From Patescibacteria group bacterium (GTDB lineage Bacteria; Acidobacteriota; Aminicenantia; UBA2199): DNA of 64,000 nt. Below, in pieces: positions 4,255-33,052 of the stretch (within the stretch, counting starts at the first letter, position 1; every line of letters begins with the position of its first letter). The notes under the pieces are model-generated. The model searched no databases. It was not told the DNA's origin and saw nothing but the letters and a program-made list of their open reading frames with translations. The stretch lies in the NCBI GenBank assembly GCA_035528155.1, contig DATKZA010000121.1, positions 26,554 through 90,553 on the forward strand, given 5' to 3'. The position numbers and the translations under genes were made by a program.

Positions 4255-5020
4255 GGATGCGCAAAATGGTAGTCAGTACCGGCTTGAGGTTTTTGCGCTG
4301 AACGACCAGGTCCAGCATGCCATGCTCCAGCAGGAATTCCGCGGTCTGGAACCCCGGGGGCAGGACCTGGCCGATGGTCTGCTGAATGACCCGGGGCCCG
4401 GCGAAACCAATCAGGGCTTTGGTCTCGCCGATGATGATGTCTCCCAGCATGGCAAAGGAAGCGGTAACCCCCCCCGTGGTCGGGTCGACCAAAACCGTGA
4501 CCAGCAGCAAGCGCCGCTCATGGAATCGCTTGATAGCCGCCGCCGTCTTGGCCATCTGCATCAGGGAATAGATCCCCTCCTGCATGCGCGCTCCGCCCGA
4601 GCAGATGATGAATACCGCCGGAAGGAAATGGTCGGTCGCGTATTCGATCAGGCGGGTGATCTTCTCGCCGACCACCGATCCCATTGAGGCCATCAGGAAA
4701 CGCGGTTCGAAGACGGCCAGAGCGGTCCGATGGTCGTTGATCTTGCCGACGCCGGTGAGCACGGCTTCGTTCAGCGAGGTGGCGGCCATGGCTGCGGCGA
4801 TTTTCTGACTGTACTGGGGAAAATCCAGCGGATCGGCGCTCTGCAAATCGGCGTCCAGTTCAAAAAAAGTTCCGCGATCGCATATTCTTTTAATCCGGTT
4901 CGGAGCTTCGATGCGAAAGTGCCAGCCGCACTTGGAACAGACATAGTGGGCGTGGCGTAGAAAGGAAATGAAATGGGTGGTATTGCAATTCAGGCATTTG
5001 ACAAATAATTTGGCAAGCAT
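4211..5020 (-). CDS. accD: Acetyl-CoA carboxylase carboxyltransferase subunit beta; the track ORF is over-extended and the true start is MLAKLF at 5020
   Basis: N-terminal C4 zinc ribbon CLNC...CSKCGWH followed by a carboxyltransferase domain; conserved AccD architecture. Confidence 0.9.
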
Positions 5021-5031
5021 GCATTCACCTT

Positions 5032-6371
<1,340 letters not shown>

Positions 6372-8496: not shown

Positions 8497-11400
8497 ATGG
8501 TACTTCACGCACAAATTGCAAATTCCGCGCCCCTCCCTTATAATGCCTGCATGGGGTTTGGCAAAAGACTCGAAGCGGGCTATTTTTTCAGTGTGCCGGA
8601 CTTTGCCGATCCGGACAAGAACCTGGCGGCCCGGCAGATTTTTGTCATCGTAAGGGCATTCTTCGTGTTCGCGGTTTTGCTGCAGCTCCTGCAGGTCGCC
8701 CTGGACCCGAAAATAACCGTGCGCTGGTTTGTGTTGTTTTGTGCCACTTTCGCGGTCAGCGTCATGTTGCTGGAACTTGCCAGGCGCGGCCATGTCCGTC
8801 TGGCTTCCTTCCTGCTGGTGTTGAACTTGTGGCTGCTGGTCGGCGTATTCGCCTGGACGAGGATCGGCCTGGGGACGCGGGCCGCCTACGGCTATTTCAT
8901 CGTTGTTTTCATCGCCGGCATGGTGCTGGGCAGGTGGCCGGGGATCATCACGGCGGCGCTTTGCAGCGCTTCGACACTGGCCATCGCCCTGGCGGCTCCG
9001 GTGGCTTCGTCCGACCCCGTCCGCTTCTGGCTGGTCAACTCGTTTTACCTGCTGATCGTGCACCTGCTGCAGAACCTGTCCTGGCGCTCCATAAGGGAAT
9101 CCCTGGTCAGGGCCCGCAGCGAATTGCGGGAACGGCAGCTGGCTGAAACCGAGCTGCGCAGCAGCGATGAGCGATTCAAACAGCTGTCTTCGCTCACCTC
9201 GGAAGGAATTGTGATCCAGGCGGATGGCATCATCCTGGACGCGAACCAGGCATTCGCAGAACTTACAGGCTACGCAAACTCTGACCAGCTGATTGGGAAG
9301 AATGGCCTGGAGATCATTTCATTTACAGCGGAATCGCGAAAACGTGTGTTCGCCCATATGAGCAATCACTCCACCGAAACTTACGAAGTCGAAATTATCA
9401 AGCCGGACGGTTCATTGCTTTCAGCCGAGACCCATGGCAGGGAGATCAACTATCTTGGACGCCAAGCGCGCCTCGTCTCCATGCTTGACATCACCAAGCG
9501 CAAACAGTCGGAGGGTGAATTGCAGGCACGTGAGAATTTGCTCAGCAGTATTTTTCGCGCTGCTCCGACCGGGATTGGCGTGGTGAACAACCGGGTTTTA
9601 ACATTAGTCAATAGCCGGATTTGCGAAATGATCGGCTGGACTCAGGAAGAACTGATCGGCAAAAGCTCGCGGGTTCTCTACGTCAGTGATGCCGATTTTG
9701 AATATGTGGGAAAGAAAAAGTACCGGCAGATCGCTGAACGAGGCACGGGGACGGTGGAAACGCGCTGGCAGTGCAAGGATGGTCGCATCATCGATGTGCT
9801 GTTGAGCTCCACTCCGATCAATCCGTTGGATCAATCCGCCGGAGTGACGTTCACCGCTCTGGACATTACCGACCGCAAGCAGGGAGAGGAAAAACTGCTG
9901 GAGAGCGAGCGGCGTTACCGGACGCTTTTTGAATCGGCCGGTGATGCCATTTTCCTTCTGCATGGGGACCGGATCATTGACTGCAACTCCAAAACACTGG
10001 AGGTGTTCGGTTGTGGCCGTGAACAAATGATCGGTCTGCCCATATCGCGATTTCATCCAGCCCAGCAGCCCGACGGCAGAGATTCGCTGGTTATAGGCAA
10101 GGAGAAAAACACGGCGGCCCTGACCGGAGGCTCGCAATTTTTTGAATGGCGGCATGTCCGCTTCGATGGTGCTCAGTTCGATGCCGAGGTCAGACTGAAC
10201 CATATCCAACTGGTCGCCGGAGACTTTTTACTGGCCCTGGTACGCGACATTTCCGAACGCAAAAAACTGGAAGAGCAGTTGCGCCAGGCGCAGAAAATGG
10301 AAGCCATCGGCATCCTGGCCGGAGGCGTAGCCCATGATTTCAATAATATCCTTTCGACCATCGTCGGCTACACTTCCCTTTTGCAAATGAAGCTGAAAGC
10401 CGATGATCCGTTTAAAGAATACATCGAGCGCATCCTCTCCGCCACCGAGCGGGCGGTGAACCTGACCAGCAGCCTTCTGGCTTTCAGCCGCAAGCAGGAG
10501 ATCGAATTGCGTCCGCTTGACATCAATGACACCATTTACGGTTTCCACAAGATCCTGGCGCGGCTGATCGGGGAGGATATCGATTTCCACCTCGACCTGG
10601 CCAGCCAGACCCTGGTGGTGGACGCCGATGTCCGCCAGATCGAGCAGCTGCTGATGAACCTGGCCAACAATAGCCGCGACGCCATGCCCCGGGGAGGCAA
10701 GCTGACCATCCGCACCGATGCCGTCGTTTTAACGGAGACACGCGCCGAGATTCCCGCCGGATCCTATGCCGTCGTAACGGTTACCGACAGCGGCTCGGGC
10801 ATGACCATGGATGTCCAGGCGCACATCTTCGAGCCCTTCTTCACCACCAAGGAAGTGGGCAAGGGGACCGGGCTCGGAATGGCCATGGTTTACGGCATCG
10901 TCAAAAAGCACAACGGCTTCATCCACATGGCCAGTACAAGCGGAGCGGGGACCACTTTCAGCATCTATCTGCCCTTGAAGGCGCAAACCGTAAAAAAAAC
11001 AGCGCGCCGCAAGCAGGAAAAAATCCCGGCCGGGAGCGAAACCATTCTCCTGATCGAGGACGATGCTGCCGTCCGCCAGGTGACCCGTTCCATGCTCGAG
11101 GAATTCGGCTACACCGTGCTGGAAGCGGCAAACGGGATCGAAGCCCAGACCGTGTTCCAGCGGCAGCGGGACCAGGTCCAGCTGGTCTTATGCGACCTGA
11201 TCATGCCCAAGATGAACGGCCGCGAAACGTACGCCGCGCTCCAAAAAATCAAGGGCGATATCAAGGTGGTCTTCATGAGCGGCTATACCGCCGATATCAT
11301 CGCCGGCAAGGGCATCGCCGATCCCGGCGTCCAGCTGCTCCAGAAACCGCTGAACCCGTCGACTCTGCTCAAGAAAATCCGCAGTGTGCTGGACAAATAA
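8497..11400 (+). CDS. Hybrid sensor histidine kinase (membrane N-terminus, multiple PAS domains, HisKA, HATPase_c, C-terminal receiver)
   Basis: H-box [16 protein letters not shown] boxes ([25 protein letters not shown]), receiver D in [13 protein letters not shown]. Confidence 0.85.
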
Positions 11401-11487
11401 TAAAATATCGCCGGGCGATTGATTTAAAAATCAGGAAATATCCGCGACCCCGTTTCCTTGTTGCGGGAATGGAAACAATTTGATTTC

Positions 11488-11515
11488 TTGACATCGCCTG
11501 CCAATGACTTAAAAT
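11488..11515 (+). promoter_or_regulatory. Sigma-70-like promoter (TTGACA-16 nt-TAAAAT) upstream of the cysteine protease gene
   Basis: TTGACA at 11488-11493, TAAAAT at 11510-11515, then GGAGGA RBS at 11531 and ATG at 11542. Confidence 0.35.
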
Positions 11516-11541
11516 AACAGTTTACGATCAGGAGGACTGAA

Positions 11542-12741
11542 ATGATGAAAAGAAGGATATGGCTCGCTGGTCTGCTTGTTTTTTGTTTTCTGGGAATTCT
11601 TTTCGCCCTGACGGCGTCCGCAGTGAGCGAGAACCGGGAAGTCAAGGCGGTTCAGGATGCCATCGCCGCCGAGAAACTCTCCTGGCAGGCGGAGGTGACG
11701 CCGCTGTCGCTGCTCGACCGCGAACAAAAGCAGCAGCGTTTGGGCGGCCGCTTGAGCGAAGTGCCGGTCCAGATACCCGCTGAGAGTTTCCCCGAGCATG
11801 GGGCTTTGCCGGCATGGCTGGATTGGCGCAACAATGGCGGCAACTGGATCACTTCCGTCAAGGACCAGGGCAGCTGCGGCAGCTGCTGGGCCTTTGCCAC
11901 CACCGCCCTGCTGGAAGCCATGGTCAAAATCAGCAAGCACATGAGCCAGGATATCGATCTTTCTGAACAAATGCTGCTTTCCTGCAGCAATGCCGGCGAC
12001 TGCGTCCTCGGCGGTTATGAATACAAGGCGGCCAATTACATCAAGAGCACCGGTATCCCCAATGAGAGCTGCTATCCCTACTCGGACCGCAAAACTTCGT
12101 GCAGTCCCTGCGCCGGCTGGGCGGCACGGGTAGTGAGAATCACTTCCTGGAGTTGGGTTTCCACTTCGACCAGCGGCATCGAAACGGCGCTGCAAAGCGG
12201 TCCGGTCACCAGCTGGATGGCCGTGTATTCTGATTTCTACCATTACCGCAGCGGCGTGTACCAGCCCACGGCCGGTTCCTCTTACCAGGGCGGCCATTTC
12301 GTGGTCATCGTCGGCTACAACCATGTCGAGAGATACTGGATCTGCAAAAATTCCTGGGGGACGGCCTGGGGAGAAAGCGGGTTTTTCCGCATCAAAATGG
12401 GAACCTCCGGCATGGGCACCCAAGTGCTGCGCATGATCAAGCCGATCCTGAACAATGCGGCGCCTGTGCTGCAGAGCATTCCCGACTGCTCAGGCGAAGA
12501 AGGAAAGACCCTGGCTTTTACGCTGAGCGCCAGTGACAGTGACGGCGACCCGCTGGAATTTATGGCAGCCGGTCTGCCGGACGGGGCCGTTTTGGACGCT
12601 GCCAACGGCACTTTTTCCTGGACGCCCACCCACACCCAGTCCGGGATTTTCAACGTCCTCTTCAAAGTGTCGGACGGCATTGCCGAAGACGCGCAAGTGG
12701 TCAAGATTACTGTGCAGAATGTCAAGCGCAAGCAGTGGTAA
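11542..12741 (+). CDS. Secreted papain-like (C1 family) cysteine peptidase with a C-terminal Ig-like/cadherin-like domain
   Basis: Signal peptide; catalytic Cys motif QGSCGSCWAF, His in GGHFVVIVGYN, Asn-Ser-Trp in KNSWGTAWG. Confidence 0.8.
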   Translation: MMKRRIWLAGLLVFCFLGILFALTASAVSENREVKAVQDAIAAEKLSWQAEVTPLSLLDREQKQQRLGGRLSEVPVQIPAESFPEHGALPAWLDWRNNGGNWITSVKDQGSCGSCWAFATTALLEAMVKISKHMSQDIDLSEQMLLSCSNAGDCVLGGYEYKAANYIKSTGIPNESCYPYSDRKTSCSPCAGWAARVVRITSWSWVSTSTSGIETALQSGPVTSWMAVYSDFYHYRSGVYQPTAGSSYQGGHFVVIVGYNHVERYWICKNSWGTAWGESGFFRIKMGTSGMGTQVLRMIKPILNNAAPVLQSIPDCSGEEGKTLAFTLSASDSDGDPLEFMAAGLPDGAVLDAANGTFSWTPTHTQSGIFNVLFKVSDGIAEDAQVVKITVQNVKRKQW

Positions 12742-12766
12742 AGAGCAAAAATCAAGGAGAAAAACC

Positions 12767-13429
12767 ATGAAAAAAAATACTCCCATCATTTTCACGATAG
12801 TTTGCATGCTGCTGCTTGCCAATGCGCAACTCATGGCCTATCAGCAACCGGCCAAGAAAAGTTTCCTTAAGAAACAATTCTGCCTGCGCGGCGGCTTGAA
12901 TATGTTCGGAATCAATGGCGCGGATAGCGATTATGTGGCCGGAAGCAATGATTTTCCCACTACTCCTGCTTATCAGAGCCCGGTCGTTGGTTTCAGCTTC
13001 GCTGTTTTCACTTCCCGTTCTTTTGCCATAGGTCTGGATGTCCGTTACGGTCTTTCCGCTTCAATCGATTTGCGCGACCCTTCCGATGAAGAAACAATTC
13101 CGGTTGATGCGCCTAAAAATCTTACCGCTGTCTTCAATCTTTACAAGTATTTTGATTTTTCCAAACGATTGGGATTGTATGTTTCCCTTGGTGGCGGCAT
13201 GGAAAATCTTATGGCGGAGGAAAAGGAATATCTGTCCAATCTGGGCAGCAAAATCATCATCGCCCGTCCCCAAAAAACGCTTTCGCCCCTGGCTGCCGGC
13301 GGCATCGGCCTGCAGGCGATGCTGAACCGTTCACTGGGGATTGTTTTTGATTTTCAGGCTCTCTACATTTTTAGAAAAACAGCTCAAGTGCTCTTCTCCC
13401 CCTCCCTGGCCCTGGTGTTCAAGTTCTAA
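12767..13429 (+). CDS. Small outer-membrane beta-barrel protein (OmpA/OmpW-like); real start MKKNTP at 12767
   Basis: Signal peptide, alternating amphipathic strands, C-terminal ...LVFKF ending in Phe; AAGGAG RBS. Confidence 0.6.
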   Translation: MKKNTPIIFTIVCMLLLANAQLMAYQQPAKKSFLKKQFCLRGGLNMFGINGADSDYVAGSNDFPTTPAYQSPVVGFSFAVFTSRSFAIGLDVRYGLSASIDLRDPSDEETIPVDAPKNLTAVFNLYKYFDFSKRLGLYVSLGGGMENLMAEEKEYLSNLGSKIIIARPQKTLSPLAAGGIGLQAMLNRSLGIVFDFQALYIFRKTAQVLFSPSLALVFKF

Positions 13430-13456
13430 ATTGTAAGGACCGGGTTTTTCGGGTTT

Positions 13457-13594
13457 TCAGGAACAGCTGATCCGGTTCTTGCCGTTTTTCTTGCTTTTGT
13501 ACATCAGCAGGTCGATATTGCTCCCAGCTCCAGTCAAGTGAGGGCGACCGTGCTCTCTTCCTCCTTGGTCATGATGTTCAGGCGCATGGTTTTA
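13457..13594 (-). pseudogene. Out-of-frame C-terminal remnant of a GGDEF domain (NIDLLMYKSKKNGKNRISCS*)
   Basis: Translation of the -1-shifted frame gives (A)DxLMYKSKKNGKNRI, matching the GGDEF C-terminal consensus ADxALYxAKxxGRNR(V/I); no start codon in this frame. Confidence 0.3.
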
Positions 13595-13821
13595 TGGTTC
13601 ATATCGATATTGATGATATCGACTTCCAGGTTTTCATTTAATTCCAGTGATTTGAGCTTGGTGGTGATCTCCAACAGGGAATCGGTCGAGAGCTTTTCGT
13701 ATCTTAACTCAGCCCTGATCGTGGCGTAGTTGCCGCGGTCGAATTGATCGATGCGCAGGATGGCGAAACCGTAACGGTCAAAAACATCATAAATCAATTG
13801 CGGATCATAAGTGCTTTGCAT
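13534..13821 (-). CDS. Small hypothetical protein (95 aa) with a degenerate GGDEF-like N-terminal half; likely part of a decayed diguanylate cyclase
   Basis: FAILRIDQFDRGNYATIRAEL resembles the LxxDIDHFKxxND segment of GGDEF; lower GC than the surroundings; no GG(D/E)EF motif. Confidence 0.3.
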   Translation of the reverse strand: MQSTYDPQLIYDVFDRYGFAILRIDQFDRGNYATIRAELRYEKLSTDSLLEITTKLKSLELNENLEVDIINIDMNHKTMRLNIMTKEEESTVALT

Positions 13822-14005
13822 GATTGCCCCCGACCTTTGAGAAAATTTGTCATAAGCGGCTGCATTTTCTCTTTCATTAATATAGAATACTTTGCCTGCA
13901 AAATCAATACAATGCCCCTTTTTGCAAATTTCGGCATGGCCGGGTCGGTTCGGCCGGGGCTTGCAATCTGGCCTATCTTGATTTAAAATTTCCCCGGGTG
14001 TTGAC

Positions 14006-16033
14006 ATGATGGATAAAATCGGCAAATACACGATAAGCGGCGAAATCGGCAAGGGCGGCATGGGGGTGGTCTACCGCGGCCTGGATCCCGTGATCGGCCG
14101 TTCCGTGGCCGTCAAAACCGTCCGCCTCGATATCCTGAGGGGGGAGAGCGGCAGGGAAGACGCGCTCAAGCGCTTCCTGCGCGAAGCCCAGGCGGCCGGC
14201 AATCTCTCCCATGCCAATATCGTTACCATTTACGATGTCGGCGAACACGAGGGGCTGATCTATATTGCCATGGAGTTCATCGACGGCTGCAGCCTGGAGC
14301 AACTGCTGCAGCAGGAAAGGAAATTCACACTGCAAGAGATCACCCATTTGTTCAGCCAGATCGGCTCGGCCCTGGATTACGCCCATGGGAAGGGGATCGT
14401 CCACCGCGACATCAAGCCGGCTAACATCCTGGTCGGGCGGGACCTCAAGGTCTCCATCGTCGATTTCGGCATCGCCCGTACCGCCGCCTCGACCATGACC
14501 CAGACCGGCATGCTCATGGGGACACCGCGCTACATGTCCCCCGAGCAGATTGCCGGAAAAAAGGTGGACAACCGTTCTGACATTTTTTCCCTGGGAGCCA
14601 TCTTGTACGAGCTGTTGACCCAGCACAATCCCTTCGCAGGCGAGAGCATTACCACCGTCATTTACAAGATCATGCACGCCGAACTTCCCCCGCTCAGCGA
14701 TTTCAACAAGCAGCTGCCGGCCGGCCTGGAAGGCGTGGTCAAAAAGGCTCTGGCTCGCGACGCCGACGCCCGGTATCACAGCTGCGGCGAACTGCTTGCC
14801 GACTTGAAAAAATACGCTTTGGCCGTTCCGCAAGGCGCCACGGTCAGGGAAAGCAATTTTTACGACCATGATACGCAGCTTTTGGAAGTTGCCGGGAACA
14901 CGGTTTTTTCCGCGCCGCGCCGCCGCCGGAAACCGCTGTTGTTTTTGACGGCGTTGCTGGTCGGATTGCTGGCCGCCGCCCTTTTTGTCTTCTGGCCCGG
15001 GAGGCGAACGAATGTTCTTCCTTCCCCTGAAGGCGGTGAGATTTCCCGGCCGGCAGCCGCCCAGGAAAACAGCGGGACCGCGGGCCGCGATGTCGCTCCC
15101 GATCAAGCTGCGGTTGACACGTCCGGCCCGGACGGCCTTTTGCCTGGAGGCGAACCGGAGCCGGCCAAGAAGACCGACACCCTGCCGGCTGCCGCTGGGA
15201 CCGGTGTCCGGCCCGGGGCGCCCGTTGAAAAGCCGCTTGCTGAAATTGCCCAGGCGCAAAGCGTTGCCGGTGGGATTCAGGATGAAAGATCGCGCGCCGA
15301 GGCCGCAGCTGCCAATAAAAAAGGCTTCCTGGAGCGGGTTTTTTTCAACGGCACGGTTATGGTACAGGTCCGCCAGGGCAATTTTACCATCGGTTCTCCC
15401 AGGGGGGAAGGCGACGCCGACGAACATCCGGCCCACAAGATATTCATCAGCGATTTCTGGCTGGGAAAAACCGAAGTGACTTTTGAGCAGTTCGATTTAT
15501 TCTGTCGTGAAACCGGGCGCAGCCTGCCAAGCGATGAGGGTTGGGGCCGGGGCAGCCGGCCGGTGATCAATGTTTCCTGGGACGACGCGGACAGCTACTG
15601 CCGCTGGCTGGCGCAAAAAACCGGCCGCAACTTCCGCCTGCCGCGCGAGGCCGAATGGGAGAAAGCCGCCCGCGAAAAGTATCCCTGGGGCAGGAGCTCT
15701 CCAAGCGCAAACCAGGTCAACATGAAGGGCAAGGCGGACGGTTTTGCCTTCACCGCCCCGGTCGGCTCGTTTGCTTTAGGAGAATCGCCTTACGGCATCC
15801 TGGACATGGCCGGGAACGTCTGGGAATGGATGGCCGACTGGTACGACCCCGGCTATTACCAGGCAGCGGCCGGCCGCGACCCGCAAGGTCCGGCCGCGGG
15901 CAAAGACCGGGTGGTACGCGGCGGTTCCTGGAGAGACGGATTGGAGCTGATCCGTTCCGCCAACCGCAGCAGCGAGCGTCCGGAGCGGCGCCTGAACGTG
16001 CTGGGCTTCCGCGTGGCCATGGACTACCGCTGA
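14006..16033 (+). CDS. Hanks-type Ser/Thr protein kinase fused to a C-terminal formylglycine-generating-enzyme (FGE/SUMF1) domain
   Basis: Kinase motifs GxGxxG, VAVK, HRDIKPANIL, DFGIA, SPE; TM helix; C-terminal FGE-sulfatase region ending RGGSWRD...VLGFRVAMDYR. Confidence 0.85.
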   Translation: MMDKIGKYTISGEIGKGGMGVVYRGLDPVIGRSVAVKTVRLDILRGESGREDALKRFLREAQAAGNLSHANIVTIYDVGEHEGLIYIAMEFIDGCSLEQLLQQERKFTLQEITHLFSQIGSALDYAHGKGIVHRDIKPANILVGRDLKVSIVDFGIARTAASTMTQTGMLMGTPRYMSPEQIAGKKVDNRSDIFSLGAILYELLTQHNPFAGESITTVIYKIMHAELPPLSDFNKQLPAGLEGVVKKALARDADARYHSCGELLADLKKYALAVPQGATVRESNFYDHDTQLLEVAGNTVFSAPRRRRKPLLFLTALLVGLLAAALFVFWPGRRTNVLPSPEGGEISRPAAAQENSGTAGRDVAPDQAAVDTSGPDGLLPGGEPEPAKKTDTLPAAAGTGVRPGAPVEKPLAEIAQAQSVAGGIQDERSRAEAAAANKKGFLERVFFNGTVMVQVRQGNFTIGSPRGEGDADEHPAHKIFISDFWLGKTEVTFEQFDLFCRETGRSLPSDEGWGRGSRPVINVSWDDADSYCRWLAQKTGRNFRLPREAEWEKAAREKYPWGRSSPSANQVNMKGKADGFAFTAPVGSFALGESPYGILDMAGNVWEWMADWYDPGYYQAAAGRDPQGPAAGKDRVVRGGSWRDGLELIRSANRSSERPERRLNVLGFRVAMDYR

Positions 16034-16749
16034 TGGCCGCCCTCACCTCGCTGCATGCCCTGATCGAAGCCCTGAGGGACGGAGCGCCGATCAACAAGGT
16101 TCTGCTCAACCGCTCGCGCCAGGACGCGAAGATGCGCACCGTGATCGAGTTGTGCCGCCGGCGCGGCGTGATCTTTCAGCTCGTCCCGGCTGAAGCCGTC
16201 GACCGCAAGGCCGGCGTCAGGAACCAGGGCGTATGGGCCGAGATCGCGCCCGTCGGTTTTGTTTCCCTCGATTCGCTGCTGGCCGCGGTCAAAACCGGCC
16301 TGGTCGTGATCCTGGACGGCATCGAGGATACCGGCAACCTGGGGGCCATCGTGCGCAGCGCCGCCGCCGTGGAAGCCGACGGGATTCTGGTCTCCATCCG
16401 CGGCTCGGCCCCGGTCAACGACACCGTCTGGAAGACCTCGGCCGGGACCCTGGGGAAAGTGAGCCTGGTCCAGTCGCGCAACCTGGCCATGGATATCGAG
16501 AAATTGAAAAAAGCCGGTTTCTGGGTGGTGGCGGCCGACCAGCGCGCCGGCATAAATTTTTATGACTTTGATTTCAAGGGCAGAACCGCCGTGATATTGG
16601 GAAACGAAAGCAAGGGGGTCTCGGCCCTGCTGAAAAAAAATGCCGACCAGCTTCTGGCCATTCCCCATTCGCCGGCCGTGGAATCGCTCAACGTGTCGGC
16701 CGCGGCGGCCATCATGCTGTTCGAGGCCTATCGGCAGAAGAACAAGTAA
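16033..16749 (+). CDS. rlmB: SpoU/TrmH-family rRNA 2'-O-methyltransferase (RlmB-like); start overlaps the kinase stop (TGATG)
   Basis: SpoU methylase motifs LDGIEDTGNLGAIVRSAAA, AVILGNESKGVS, LNVSAAAAIMLFE. Confidence 0.8.
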   Translation: MAALTSLHALIEALRDGAPINKVLLNRSRQDAKMRTVIELCRRRGVIFQLVPAEAVDRKAGVRNQGVWAEIAPVGFVSLDSLLAAVKTGLVVILDGIEDTGNLGAIVRSAAAVEADGILVSIRGSAPVNDTVWKTSAGTLGKVSLVQSRNLAMDIEKLKKAGFWVVAADQRAGINFYDFDFKGRTAVILGNESKGVSALLKKNADQLLAIPHSPAVESLNVSAAAAIMLFEAYRQKNK

Positions 16750-16903
16750 CCTGGGTTCCGGGGAACAGCGAAAACCAAAAAGCAGGGCTCGAAGTTCGAC
16801 GTTGGAACGCCATAGACGAAATCCAAGCCTCGCAGCCAGCGGGCAGGCCTGCCCTGAGGGAACAAATATTTTTAATAAACAAAAATTCTGTTATAATCAA
16901 GAC

Positions 16904-17296
16904 ATGGCGAAAAAAGGCTTTACCCTGATCGAGCTGCTGATCGTGGTCACCCTGATCGGCATCTTGGTGGCGATCATGGTGCCGCAGTACAAGTATTCGG
17001 TTTTGCGGGCCAAGGAGGCGGTCCTGAAGGAGAACCTGTTCCAGTTGCGGGACGCCATCAACAAGTATTATTTCGACAAGAAAAAGTATCCGGCCAGTCT
17101 TGACGACCTGGTCACGGCGCGCTACCTGCGCGAGGTCCCCTTTGATCCCATCAGCAAAAGCAGTGAATGGGAGTTGATCCGGACCGAGCCCCTGGAGGAC
17201 GAGGAATTCGATCCCGAGGCCGACCAGGGCATTATCGACGTCAAATGCCTGTCCAAGGCCACCTCCATGGACGGCACGCCCTATGCCGATTGGTAG
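16904..17296 (+). CDS. Type II secretion/type IV pilus pseudopilin (GspG-like) with a prepilin N-terminal methylation motif
   Basis: MAKKGFTLIELLIVVTLIGILVAI is a classic prepilin peptidase site G|FTLIE; extended -10 TGTTATAAT immediately upstream. Confidence 0.75.
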   Translation: MAKKGFTLIELLIVVTLIGILVAIMVPQYKYSVLRAKEAVLKENLFQLRDAINKYYFDKKKYPASLDDLVTARYLREVPFDPISKSSEWELIRTEPLEDEEFDPEADQGIIDVKCLSKATSMDGTPYADW

Positions 17297-17305
17297 GGGG
17301 CGGCG

Positions 17306-17824
17306 GTGAAAAAACGGCCTTTTGCCGGCCGCGCCGGCTACGTCATGATCGTGCTGATGATCGCCGTGGCGGTGCTGAGCGTGTTCATGCTCATGGCCGT
17401 GCCGCTCTGGCAGACCATGATGCAGCGCGAGGCCGAGGAGGAGCTGATCTTCCGCGCCCGCCAGTACGTCAGCGCCATCGGCTTTTACGTCAAAAGCCAC
17501 AACAACCTCTACCCGCAGAATTTCGAAATCCTGCACCTGGAAAAATTCCTGCGCCGGCTCTATCCCGATCCGGTCAGCGCCGACGGTCGTTGGGACATGG
17601 TTTTCAAGGATACTACCGGCGGCGAGGCCAAATACCTCGTGGTCCCGGCCCACCTGGCCCAGGCCTATTTCAGCCGGGCCGTGCTTGTGGGCGTATGCTC
17701 CACTTCCCCGGAAACGGCTTTCCGCGAATATCGCGGCAAAAAGAAATACAATGAATGGGCTTTTTACCTGGGTGAAAAGGAAAACGAGAAAATGCCCGAG
17801 CTGCAGTACGAGGGCGGCCAGTGA
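17306..17824 (+). CDS. Prepilin-like protein lacking the conserved Glu+5 (minor pseudopilin-like); GTG start
   Basis: Leader MKKRPFAGRAG|YVMIVLMIAVAVLSV resembles a prepilin N-terminus but has V at +5. Confidence 0.45.
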   Translation: MKKRPFAGRAGYVMIVLMIAVAVLSVFMLMAVPLWQTMMQREAEEELIFRARQYVSAIGFYVKSHNNLYPQNFEILHLEKFLRRLYPDPVSADGRWDMVFKDTTGGEAKYLVVPAHLAQAYFSRAVLVGVCSTSPETAFREYRGKKKYNEWAFYLGEKENEKMPELQYEGGQ

Positions 17825-18945
17825 AGAACATCCTGCTGGTGGCGGCCGAAAATTCGGCCGAAACCTACGCCGTGCAGGTCCTGAAGGAATTTCAGGCCCG
17901 GGGCGACCACTTCCATTTCTGGGGAATTGGCGGCGACCGCCTGGCCGCCAACGGCTTTGAAAACCTGGTGCACAACCGCTCGCTGTCGGTGGTGGGCATC
18001 GTCGAGGTCGCGGCCCACCTCTTGCGCATCCGGCGGGTGCTGAACCTGGTCCTGCGCCGGGCGCGGGAACGCAAAGCCGACGCCGCCCTGCTGATCGACT
18101 ATCCCGACTTCAACCTGCGCTTGGCCCGCCGCCTGCGCCGGGCCGGTATCCCGGTTTATTACTACATCAGCCCCACGGTCTGGGCCTGGCGATACGGCCG
18201 GGTCGAGCAGATCCGCCGCTGGGTGAGCCGGCTGTTCATCATTTTTCCTTTTGAAGTGCCCATTTACGAAATGGAAAAGGTGACCTTCACCTATACCGGC
18301 CATCCGCTCCTGGCCGAGGTGCGGGTCAGCGAACCGCGAGAGGAATTCCGCCGCCGCCACGGCGTGGCCGCCGGCGACATCCTGCTGGCGCTGCTGCCGG
18401 GCAGCCGCGAGGCCGAGGTGCGCACGCTGCTGCCCGAGATCATGGGAGCCGTGCGCCGCCTGCAAAAGGAATTTCCCCTGAAAGTGTTTCTGCAGAAAGC
18501 GCAGAATATTCACCAGGAGCAACTGGCCGCGGTCGACCCGGATATCCGCGTCCTGGACCAGGAACAGGGCTTCGACCTGCTCAACGCCGCCGACGCGGTC
18601 ATCACCACTTGCGGCACTTCCAACCTGGAGGCGGCCTTGCTCGGGGTCCCTTTTGTCGCCGTGTACCGCGTCAACCGCCTGACCTACCTGCTGGGCAGGC
18701 GCTTTGTCAAGATCGGTCTATATTCCATTGTCAATATCCTGGCTGGGCGCCAGGTTGCGACCGAGCTGATACAAAAAGAGTGCCGGACCGGGCGCATTTA
18801 TGAGGAAACCAAAAAGATCCTGGACGATCCCCGGCTGCGGGAAGAAATGCGGCGAGAGTTCCGGCGCATCAAGGATAGCCTTAGCCAGGAAGAGAAACCC
18901 GCCGTCATCATCTGCCGCCAGATCGGCGCCGACCTGGAAGGGTGA
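17821..18945 (+). CDS. lpxB: Lipid-A-disaccharide synthase; GTG start overlapping the upstream stop (GTGA)
   Basis: Full-length similarity to LpxB (GT19): MKNILLVAAENSAE...LLIDYPDFNLRLA... Confidence 0.85.
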   Translation: MKNILLVAAENSAETYAVQVLKEFQARGDHFHFWGIGGDRLAANGFENLVHNRSLSVVGIVEVAAHLLRIRRVLNLVLRRARERKADAALLIDYPDFNLRLARRLRRAGIPVYYYISPTVWAWRYGRVEQIRRWVSRLFIIFPFEVPIYEMEKVTFTYTGHPLLAEVRVSEPREEFRRRHGVAAGDILLALLPGSREAEVRTLLPEIMGAVRRLQKEFPLKVFLQKAQNIHQEQLAAVDPDIRVLDQEQGFDLLNAADAVITTCGTSNLEAALLGVPFVAVYRVNRLTYLLGRRFVKIGLYSIVNILAGRQVATELIQKECRTGRIYEETKKILDDPRLREEMRREFRRIKDSLSQEEKPAVIICRQIGADLEG

Positions 18946-26547: not shown

Positions 26548-26556
26548 TTTTATCTC

Positions 26557-32362: not shown

Positions 32363-33052
32363 ATGCCCGGATTACTGACAAAAGCAAAAACCTATTTGTT
32401 GCTGGGAACGTTGTTCATCGCCCTGGCCGGGATTGGCATCTTCCTGGAATTGACCAATCGCCTGGATGGAGATCCCTGGCTGCATGCAGCCGCGATCGTC
32501 ATGCTCAACCTGCTCCTGCTGCTTGGCTGCGTCAGCGTCGTCCGCGGCGCCGTCAGCGAACGGCTCGAATATTATTCCAGCATCGACCCCCTGACCGGCA
32601 TTATGAACCGGGTCTCCTTCTGGCGTGTTTTGGAAAAGGAGATTCGCAGGGTGGAGCGTTATCGCCATCCCCTGGCCATGATCATGCTGGATATCGATCA
32701 TTTCAAAGCCATCAACGATTCACAGGGATCTGCGGTCGGCGACCAGGTGCTGAAAACCATGGCCGGTGAGATCAAGAAAAACATCCGGGAAATTGATTTT
32801 TTCGCCCGTATCGGCGGTGAAGAATTTTTGATTTTGGCCCCGGAAACCGACCGGGAAAGAGCCGTGAACCTGGCGGAAAAGATCAGGGAAACGGTGGCCG
32901 CCATCTCTTTTGTCAAAGCCGGGCCCATCACCATCAGCCTGGGAGTGACACAATTTTGCGCCGGCGACCGGGCCGACCTGCTGCTGACAAAGGTAGACCA
33001 GGCGCTGACCCGGGCCAAGGCCGGCGGCCGCAACCGCGTGGTCTGCTCTTGA
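32363..33052 (+). CDS. Membrane-anchored diguanylate cyclase (GGDEF)
   Basis: Two TM helices followed by DPLTGIMNR...LDIDHFKAINDSQG...RIGGEEFLIL...TRAKAGGRNRV; GGAGGAGG RBS. Confidence 0.85.
   Translation: MPGLLTKAKTYLLLGTLFIALAGIGIFLELTNRLDGDPWLHAAAIVMLNLLLLLGCVSVVRGAVSERLEYYSSIDPLTGIMNRVSFWRVLEKEIRRVERYRHPLAMIMLDIDHFKAINDSQGSAVGDQVLKTMAGEIKKNIREIDFFARIGGEEFLILAPETDRERAVNLAEKIRETVAAISFVKAGPITISLGVTQFCAGDRADLLLTKVDQALTRAKAGGRNRVVCS

Follow-up and report, generated by a model that had tools for sequence, protein, structure and literature searches.

A probable deletion relic of a PAS-GGDEF diguanylate cyclase gene beside an intact 95-residue small gene in Aminicenantia

The locus described here lies in contig DATKZA010000121.1 (assembly GCA_035528155.1; GTDB lineage Acidobacteriota, Aminicenantia), of which positions 26,554 to 90,553 of the forward strand, 64,000 nucleotides (nt) in all, were analysed and are called the window throughout. 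In it, an intact minus-strand gene for a 95-residue protein is followed by 58 nt that, judged by comparison with related genomes, are very probably a deletion relic of a neighbouring diguanylate cyclase gene: a case of ordinary gene loss, not of a frameshift and not of a degenerate domain. Ancestrally, the locus would have been a two-gene unit, the 95-residue gene and behind it a gene for a 304-residue diguanylate cyclase with PAS and GGDEF domains, until a single deletion of ~900 base pairs (bp) in the window lineage ran from 14 nt past the small-gene stop to cyclase codon 286. Apart from the remaining spacer, this would have removed the PAS sensor and all but the very end of the GGDEF domain, GGEEF active site included, and left an untranslatable 3′ fragment of 18 codons and a stop. 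The small gene came through undamaged, and purifying selection still acts on it; the relic is probably non-functional DNA that drifts neutrally.

The 903-bp gap and the cyclase tail

A scan of 185,579 species-representative genomes for relatives of the small protein gave 31 loci. The original prediction had proposed a comparison with the orthologous locus in related genomes, and it is this comparison that reveals the small gene and a separate cyclase gene behind it. The closest relatives, L001 (SPCN01000021.1), L002 (JALHTJ010000216.1) and L042 (ERZ25039603 contig_7117), are 86-90% identical to the window at the nucleotide level, and all three have, 60 nt downstream of the small gene, a gene for a 304-residue PAS-GGDEF protein that contains the GGEEF motif and ends in RADLLMYKSKKKGKN(L/R)ISCS. 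In L001 this gene occupies 4349..5263 and encodes PAS and GGDEF domains (PF00990, E=3.6e-38), the GGEEF motif and the C-terminus RADLLMYKSKKKGKNLISCS before the stop. By blastn, window 17834..13520 corresponds to L001 1..4302 (88% identity) and window 13514..11257 to L001 5206..7454 (88.5%); from 13520 upward the window is likewise collinear with L002 to its position 414 and with L042 to 3302, and the gap of 903 bp is identical against both. The gap takes in 46 nt at the end of the spacer and, of the cyclase gene, codons 1-285 together with two bases of codon 286. Because both flanks are collinear with the intact loci and the internal segment is gone at a single junction, the locus is classed as a deletion relic. 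The features are collected in the table below.

Table. Features of the locus (window coordinates).
Feature	Position	Strand	Description
220-residue gene	12767..13429	plus	No Pfam match; right-hand synteny anchor (gene calls, tblastn)
Cyclase 3′ relic	13457..13514	minus	Last base of codon 286, 18 codons (DLLMYKSKKNGKNRISCS) and TGA stop at 13459..13457
Deletion junction	13515..13519	minus	AATAT, matching neither flank of the intact loci; replaces 903 bp
Retained spacer	13520..13533	minus	First 14 nt of the spacer between small gene and cyclase gene; left deletion edge
95-residue small gene	13534..13821	minus	ATG start, 95 codons, TGA stop at 13534-13536; intact, non-GGDEF
Divergent intergenic region	13822..14005		Separates the small gene from the Ser/Thr-kinase/FGE-sulfatase gene; one sigma-70-like match per strand
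Ser/Thr-kinase/FGE-sulfatase gene	14006-16033	plus	Pfam Pkinase and FGE-sulfatase; divergent from the small gene

Just downstream of the small gene, a minus-strand frame other than its own reads GAGSNIDLLMYKSKKNGKNRISCS (quoted over another length, HLTGAGSNIDLLMYKSKKNGKNRISCS), ending at the stop at 13459..13457; the relic peptide proper, DLLMYKSKKNGKNRISCS and its stop, spans 13513..13457. When the PAS-GGDEF protein of L001 was searched against the whole window by tblastn, its residues 287-305, which sit in the region of the PF00990 match of that protein (144-299), matched 13513..13457 with 17/19 identities (E=5.8e-5). Because of this match and the collinear flanking DNA we regard LMYKSKKNGKNRI as a genuine GGDEF C-terminus, that of the neighbouring PAS-GGDEF diguanylate cyclase gene, and the tail that the original prediction had recognised in this other frame is thus real. 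The relic lacks a PAS domain, a GGEEF motif and any plausible start codon; it is derived from the GGDEF family without being a functional member of it. The original prediction had staked its case on GGDEF similarity under a hidden Markov model (HMM) in either frame, and taken literally this fails, no similarity being found in either; yet the 18 codons, too short for the HMM, are recognisably homologous, though only through their orthologs.

Those orthologs, PAS-GGDEF cyclases with PF00990 and a PAS domain (PF00989/PF13426), are found in L001, L042 and ~18 other Aminicenantes loci. The relic shares with them homologous last 18 codons and stop (the DLLMY(K/R)SKK.GKN end) and the same position between the small gene and a convergent 220-residue gene, and differs from them in that PAS sensor, GGEEF active site and start codon are all missing. 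When the window was searched for a duplicate of the small gene and for an ortholog of the cyclase that might have moved elsewhere, only unrelated GGDEF genes at ~32.5-33.6 kb came up; these two coding regions, 32549-33052 (plus strand) and 33595-33101 (minus strand), are 31-36% identical to the lost cyclase and are not its orthologs.

The hexamer GAGCGC is present at both breakpoints in the intact relatives (seen in L001), and the deletion possibly went by way of this microhomology. At the junction, either a simple microhomology deletion was followed by mutation or filler DNA was involved; both could give what is seen. The reading frame of the relic differs from that of the small gene because the deleted length was under no frame constraint. 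A frameshifted pseudogene would keep both halves of one open reading frame (ORF), displaced by a non-triplet insertion or deletion; here ~286 of the 304 cyclase codons are absent. Compared with bacterial gene remnants formed by internal or 5′ deletion, the relic is alike in being a truncated 3′ fragment without a start, in its collinear flanks and in its signs of relaxed constraint, and has nothing unusual except the 5-nt junction filler. A programmed frameshift that would fuse the 95-residue ORF to the relic was considered and rejected: the relatives have either an unrelated spacer of 60-75 nt or a separate, overlapping start, and the fused tail occurs in none of them.

The exact 95-residue protein is encoded on 16 public contigs, ten of which were retrieved (from three Joint Genome Institute (JGI) samples, four Logan runs of the Sequence Read Archive and three European Nucleotide Archive (ENA) assemblies), and support for the junction was judged on these assembled contigs. 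Nine of the ten (L032-L040) have the identical junction, and the tenth (L041) ends inside the relic; in nine, too, the small gene is followed ~105 nt on by the convergent 220-residue gene. The junction-bearing contigs form two haplotypes, which over ~1.9 kb differ at three positions only, 13478, 13481 and 13485. All three lie inside the 58-nt relic and within 8 nt of each other (AAC GGC AAG against AGC GGT AAA), and one of them is non-synonymous in the old cyclase frame. By our own arithmetic, the chance that three random differences in 1,955 nt all land in 58 nt is ~3e-5, and the clustering suggests that the relic is no longer constrained.

Some observations weigh against reading the locus as a neutrally drifting deletion relic. 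The three differences, clustered as they are, may just as well stem from one multi-nucleotide mutation or from a short conversion tract, neither of which needs relaxed constraint. The AATAT filler is explained by neither flank in the relatives, and the exact event is not reconstructable from it. The JGI, Logan and ENA assemblies, moreover, may partly share sequencing runs, which puts the number of independent observations of the junction below ten, still with at least three samples and three assembly pipelines.

That the relic has been kept for a function, an idea compatible with its origin by deletion, we consider unlikely. It could be part of the terminator of the 220-residue gene on the plus strand, where a long hairpin at ~13433-13482 and a U-rich tract to ~13500 (GUUUUUCUUGCUUUUGU) come directly after the stop of that gene at 13429, and where the same antisense stretch of L001, L002 and L042 has a T9 run. 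The hairpin, however, folds no better than shuffled sequences (z=-0.87), the consensus fold of ten loci shows no covariation and keeps just 7 pairs invariant, a terminator scan made no call at the hairpin, and no Rfam match was found; of the haplotype differences, 13481 and 13485 lie in the would-be U-rich tract and 13478 where the hairpin ends. It could also encode a micro-peptide from an internal TTG or ATG, but the possible peptides have at most 26 residues and no conserved start. L009 and L017 do without any relic, though in a different gene context. As a candidate for a conserved terminator or RNA the relic was therefore rejected, its folds being those of shuffled sequence, without covariation or Rfam match.

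It is very improbable that the junction is an assembly artefact, in which the 0.9-kb gene would be present in the organism and the contig collapsed or mis-joined. The window does come from a metagenome-type assembly and was judged from assembled contigs. The breakpoints, however, have no long repeat that might cause a collapse, their sole shared sequence being the 6-nt microhomology, and the same junction recurs in the JGI samples, Logan runs and ENA assemblies named above, in two haplotypes that differ only in the relic. Because the junction is the same in nine other contigs from several samples and assemblers, it is not a one-off assembly error, and the assembly indel in an enzymatically dead regulator that the original prediction had offered as an alternative falls for the same reason.

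Ancestral state and repeated loss of the cyclase

The paralog group of the window small gene, here family A, comprises 22 loci from genome assemblies. In 20 of the 22, relatives with only 73% protein identity among them, the PAS-GGDEF gene comes next after the small gene; among these 20, the reading frames are disrupted in L002, L007 and L027, and L004 is cut by the contig end. In five loci (L003, L005, L008, L016 and L030) the start of the cyclase ORF, taken as the longest ORF, overlaps the small-gene stop by 4 nt, which suggests translational coupling in an operon. Because 20 of 22 loci across the whole divergence range carry the cyclase, its presence counts as ancestral. The opposite polarity, in which the window keeps an ancestral empty site and an insertion brought the PAS-GGDEF gene into the relatives, could draw on two other family-A loci without the cyclase gene (L009 and L017), but is extremely improbable: an empty site would not hold 18 codons and a stop that match the inserted gene at 17/19 residues, the cyclase is spread over the whole range of divergence in family A, and the 4-nt overlaps point to an old operon.

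Other loci show absences or lesions of the same gene. In L002 (461-1375), codon 225 is an in-frame amber codon (GAG to TAG) at the first E of GGEEF; the cyclase is otherwise 97% identical to that of L001 at the protein level, with differences mostly at third codon positions, and the amber codon is either an independent recent knockout or a sequencing error. In L009 (JAFGST010000073.1, 859-1182) and L017 (JAPKZM010000264.1, 2497-2820) a convergent histidine kinase gene begins 12-36 nt after the small gene, with neither cyclase nor relic between them; these are apparently further independent absences of the PAS-GGDEF gene. L027 (CAVXTN010000006.1, 4001-5302) has frameshifts in both the small gene and the PAS-GGDEF gene, and L007 (CAWGGP010000007.1, 4305-5311) in the PAS-GGDEF gene; these are either assembly or sequencing indel errors or real decay. 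Since the same gene has apparently been hit independently in L002, L009 and L017, there is a hint that in some habitats this PAS-GGDEF cyclase can be dispensed with or is selected against.

The 95-residue gene

The minus-strand ORF at 13821..13534 encodes the 95-residue protein as the original prediction quoted it, beginning MQSTYDPQLIYDVFDRYGFAILRIDQFDRGNYATIRAEL and ending STVALT before the stop. Its homologues form 109 clusters, 62-94% identical to the window ORF and most of them 94-98 residues long, which carry either no annotation or the label hypothetical protein; the source names, few of which are given, are Aminicenantes or Acidobacteria metagenome-assembled genomes, and one cluster is labelled Binatia. 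The family alignment has 23 invariant columns, and most of the sequences shown end within a few residues of each other. Pairwise ratios of non-synonymous to synonymous substitution rates (dN/dS) between the window small gene and its relatives are 0.10-0.22. The gene is intact, conserved and, by these ratios, under purifying selection, and it is separate from the lost cyclase gene. Alignment over the full length, conserved length, the 23 invariant columns and low dN/dS together place the product in an uncharacterised, unnamed family of 95-residue proteins that appears to be restricted to Aminicenantes.

The original prediction had taken this ORF for the first half of a GGDEF domain, and here the evidence is against it throughout. 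With hmmscan against Pfam-A and NCBIfam at E<=10, no GGDEF match was obtained for the 95-residue ORF, alone or artificially fused with the frame downstream, or for the 39-residue downstream peptide, nor, against Pfam only, for a 175-residue ORF extended upstream; the PF00990 gathering score of 23.8 bits, taken as the threshold for GGDEF membership of the 95-residue ORF, was not reached. Scanned against Pfam, NCBIfam and PADLOC, neither the ORF nor the joined frames nor the tail peptide gave anything beyond matches at chance level (E ~0.01-0.04). Neither the ORF nor any minus-strand frame of 13400-14010 contains the GG(D/E)EF motif, and none of the 26 aligned family members has it. BLASTP of the 95-residue protein against the L001 cyclase gave no alignment at E<=100, and profile-profile comparison by hhalign of the small-protein family (A1) with the cyclase family (A4) gave a probability of 0.2%; because of these two results, the likeness of its ILRIDQFD to the (I/L)FFDIDDFK segment of the cyclases is a chance look-alike. 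More widely, the family alignment, used as a profile against PDB sequences, found nothing below E=1, and among 1.84 billion representative proteins an exhaustive HMMER search recovered only 12 clusters at 50% identity, all obvious family members, and no remote relatives.

Structure prediction points the same way. The AlphaFold2 model of the small protein (predicted local distance difference test score 85, predicted template modelling score 0.73) has the order helix-strand-strand-helix-strand-strand and is not a nucleotidyl-cyclase or palm-like fold; Foldseek with this model returned nothing at E<=0.001, and there was no GGDEF or cyclase structure among the matches listed. The model was compared with the circularly permuted ferredoxin-like alpha-beta-beta-alpha-beta-beta domains of the periplasmic parts of GspM/EpsM, GspL/EpsL and PilO (1uv7, 2w7v, 2rjz) and of engineered S6 permutants (6i6y). 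With these the small protein, as modelled, would share a resemblance of fold and not membership: sequence identity is 8-17%, with no relation at the sequence level, no membrane anchor and no secretion-system context, and on neither sequence family nor secretion or pilus gene context does it belong with them.

A single GGDEF gene, with the 95-residue ORF as its N-terminal half, the tail as its C-terminal end in another frame, a degenerated motif and a frameshift in between, has in its favour the superficial likeness of ILRIDQFD and the abutting of the two reading frames, but the intact two-gene arrangement in L001 and L042 refutes it, and we give it next to no weight. Of the claim of a diguanylate cyclase gene that lost its motif and acquired a frameshift, what stands is that a cyclase gene died here; there is no frameshift, and ~900 bp with PAS, GGEEF and nearly the whole GGDEF domain are absent. 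The AT-richness noted for the segment is likewise real (13449-13821 has 46.9% G+C against 56.5% for the whole window) and yet not a trace of decay: because the small gene lies ~8-10 points below the G+C content of its own locus in all five relatives measured, the dip is a property of the small gene.

Neighbourhood and paralogous cassettes

The gene order is conserved. A SpoU-type methylase and a Ser/Thr kinase with an FGE-sulfatase domain come first and are transcribed divergently from the small gene; the small gene itself and PAS-GGDEF follow; and beyond the cyclase, convergent to it, lie the 220-residue gene, a C1 peptidase and a PAS histidine kinase. In the relatives, the 220-residue gene ends 18-30 nt from the cyclase stop. 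It adjoins the C1 peptidase gene in many of them, and the C-terminus of its product, LALVFKF, looks like the terminus of an outer-membrane beta-barrel. The promoter-like sites of the divergent intergenic region lie at 13907..13879 (minus strand) and 13961..13989 (plus strand).

A second paralog group of the small protein, beginning MKNTYDPQLIYDMFDR, is followed by an FHA-GGDEF gene in 5 of its 10 loci. In these five (L018, L019, L020, L021 and L025; for example, L020 4001-5339) the paralogs are 65-72% identical and lie ~100-125 nt upstream of a 312-residue FHA-GGDEF gene, which in L019 is called as 338 residues from an upstream alternative start; its Pfam matches are PF00498 (E=5e-17) and PF00990 (E=6.5e-46). 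Some genomes, such as JALHTJ, SPCN and JADFDP, have both cassettes. Two paralogous cassettes, one with PAS-GGDEF and one with FHA-GGDEF, thus have the small gene ahead of a GGDEF gene; in the window, L009, L017, L022-24, L026 and L028 the small gene has none behind it. FHA domains bind phospho-threonine, and the kinase that adjoins the small gene, together with the FHA-GGDEF protein of the paralogous cassette, hints at cross-talk from the kinase to cyclic di-GMP (c-di-GMP) in this clade. In L043 (FWPV01012476.1, 2241-3315), a divergent family member of 104 residues (P0117) is encoded divergently from a SpoU methylase gene, in a neighbourhood that lacks any GGDEF gene; the SpoU gene is the direct divergent neighbour of the small gene in several family-A loci too, and SpoU and small gene may be the oldest pairing.

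Small partner proteins are known to be encoded beside GGDEF enzymes, as H-NOX is with HaCE cyclases and YfiR with YfiN. By analogy, the small gene resembles the small partners of these pairs: it lies directly ahead of a GGDEF gene, its stop codon sometimes overlaps the start of that gene, and the arrangement occurs in two cassettes. We put forward only tentatively, and think it rather doubtful, that the small protein is a new, clade-restricted partner with a permuted ferredoxin-like fold that regulates the adjoining GGDEF enzyme or acts downstream of it; it would have been duplicated with the enzyme into the PAS-GGDEF and FHA-GGDEF cassettes, and as an orphan in the window would be kept through the paralogous system or a second role. 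A literature search on Aminicenantes and diguanylate cyclases found nothing relevant.

For annotation, the 95-residue ORF should be entered as a normal gene (hypothetical protein) and not merged into a GGDEF pseudogene, and the relic should be entered as a gene remnant at most. The wider interest of the locus is limited to the uncharacterised family of small proteins that travels with GGDEF genes in Aminicenantes. For the organism itself, the deletion would mean that the window lineage has one PAS-regulated c-di-GMP synthase fewer.
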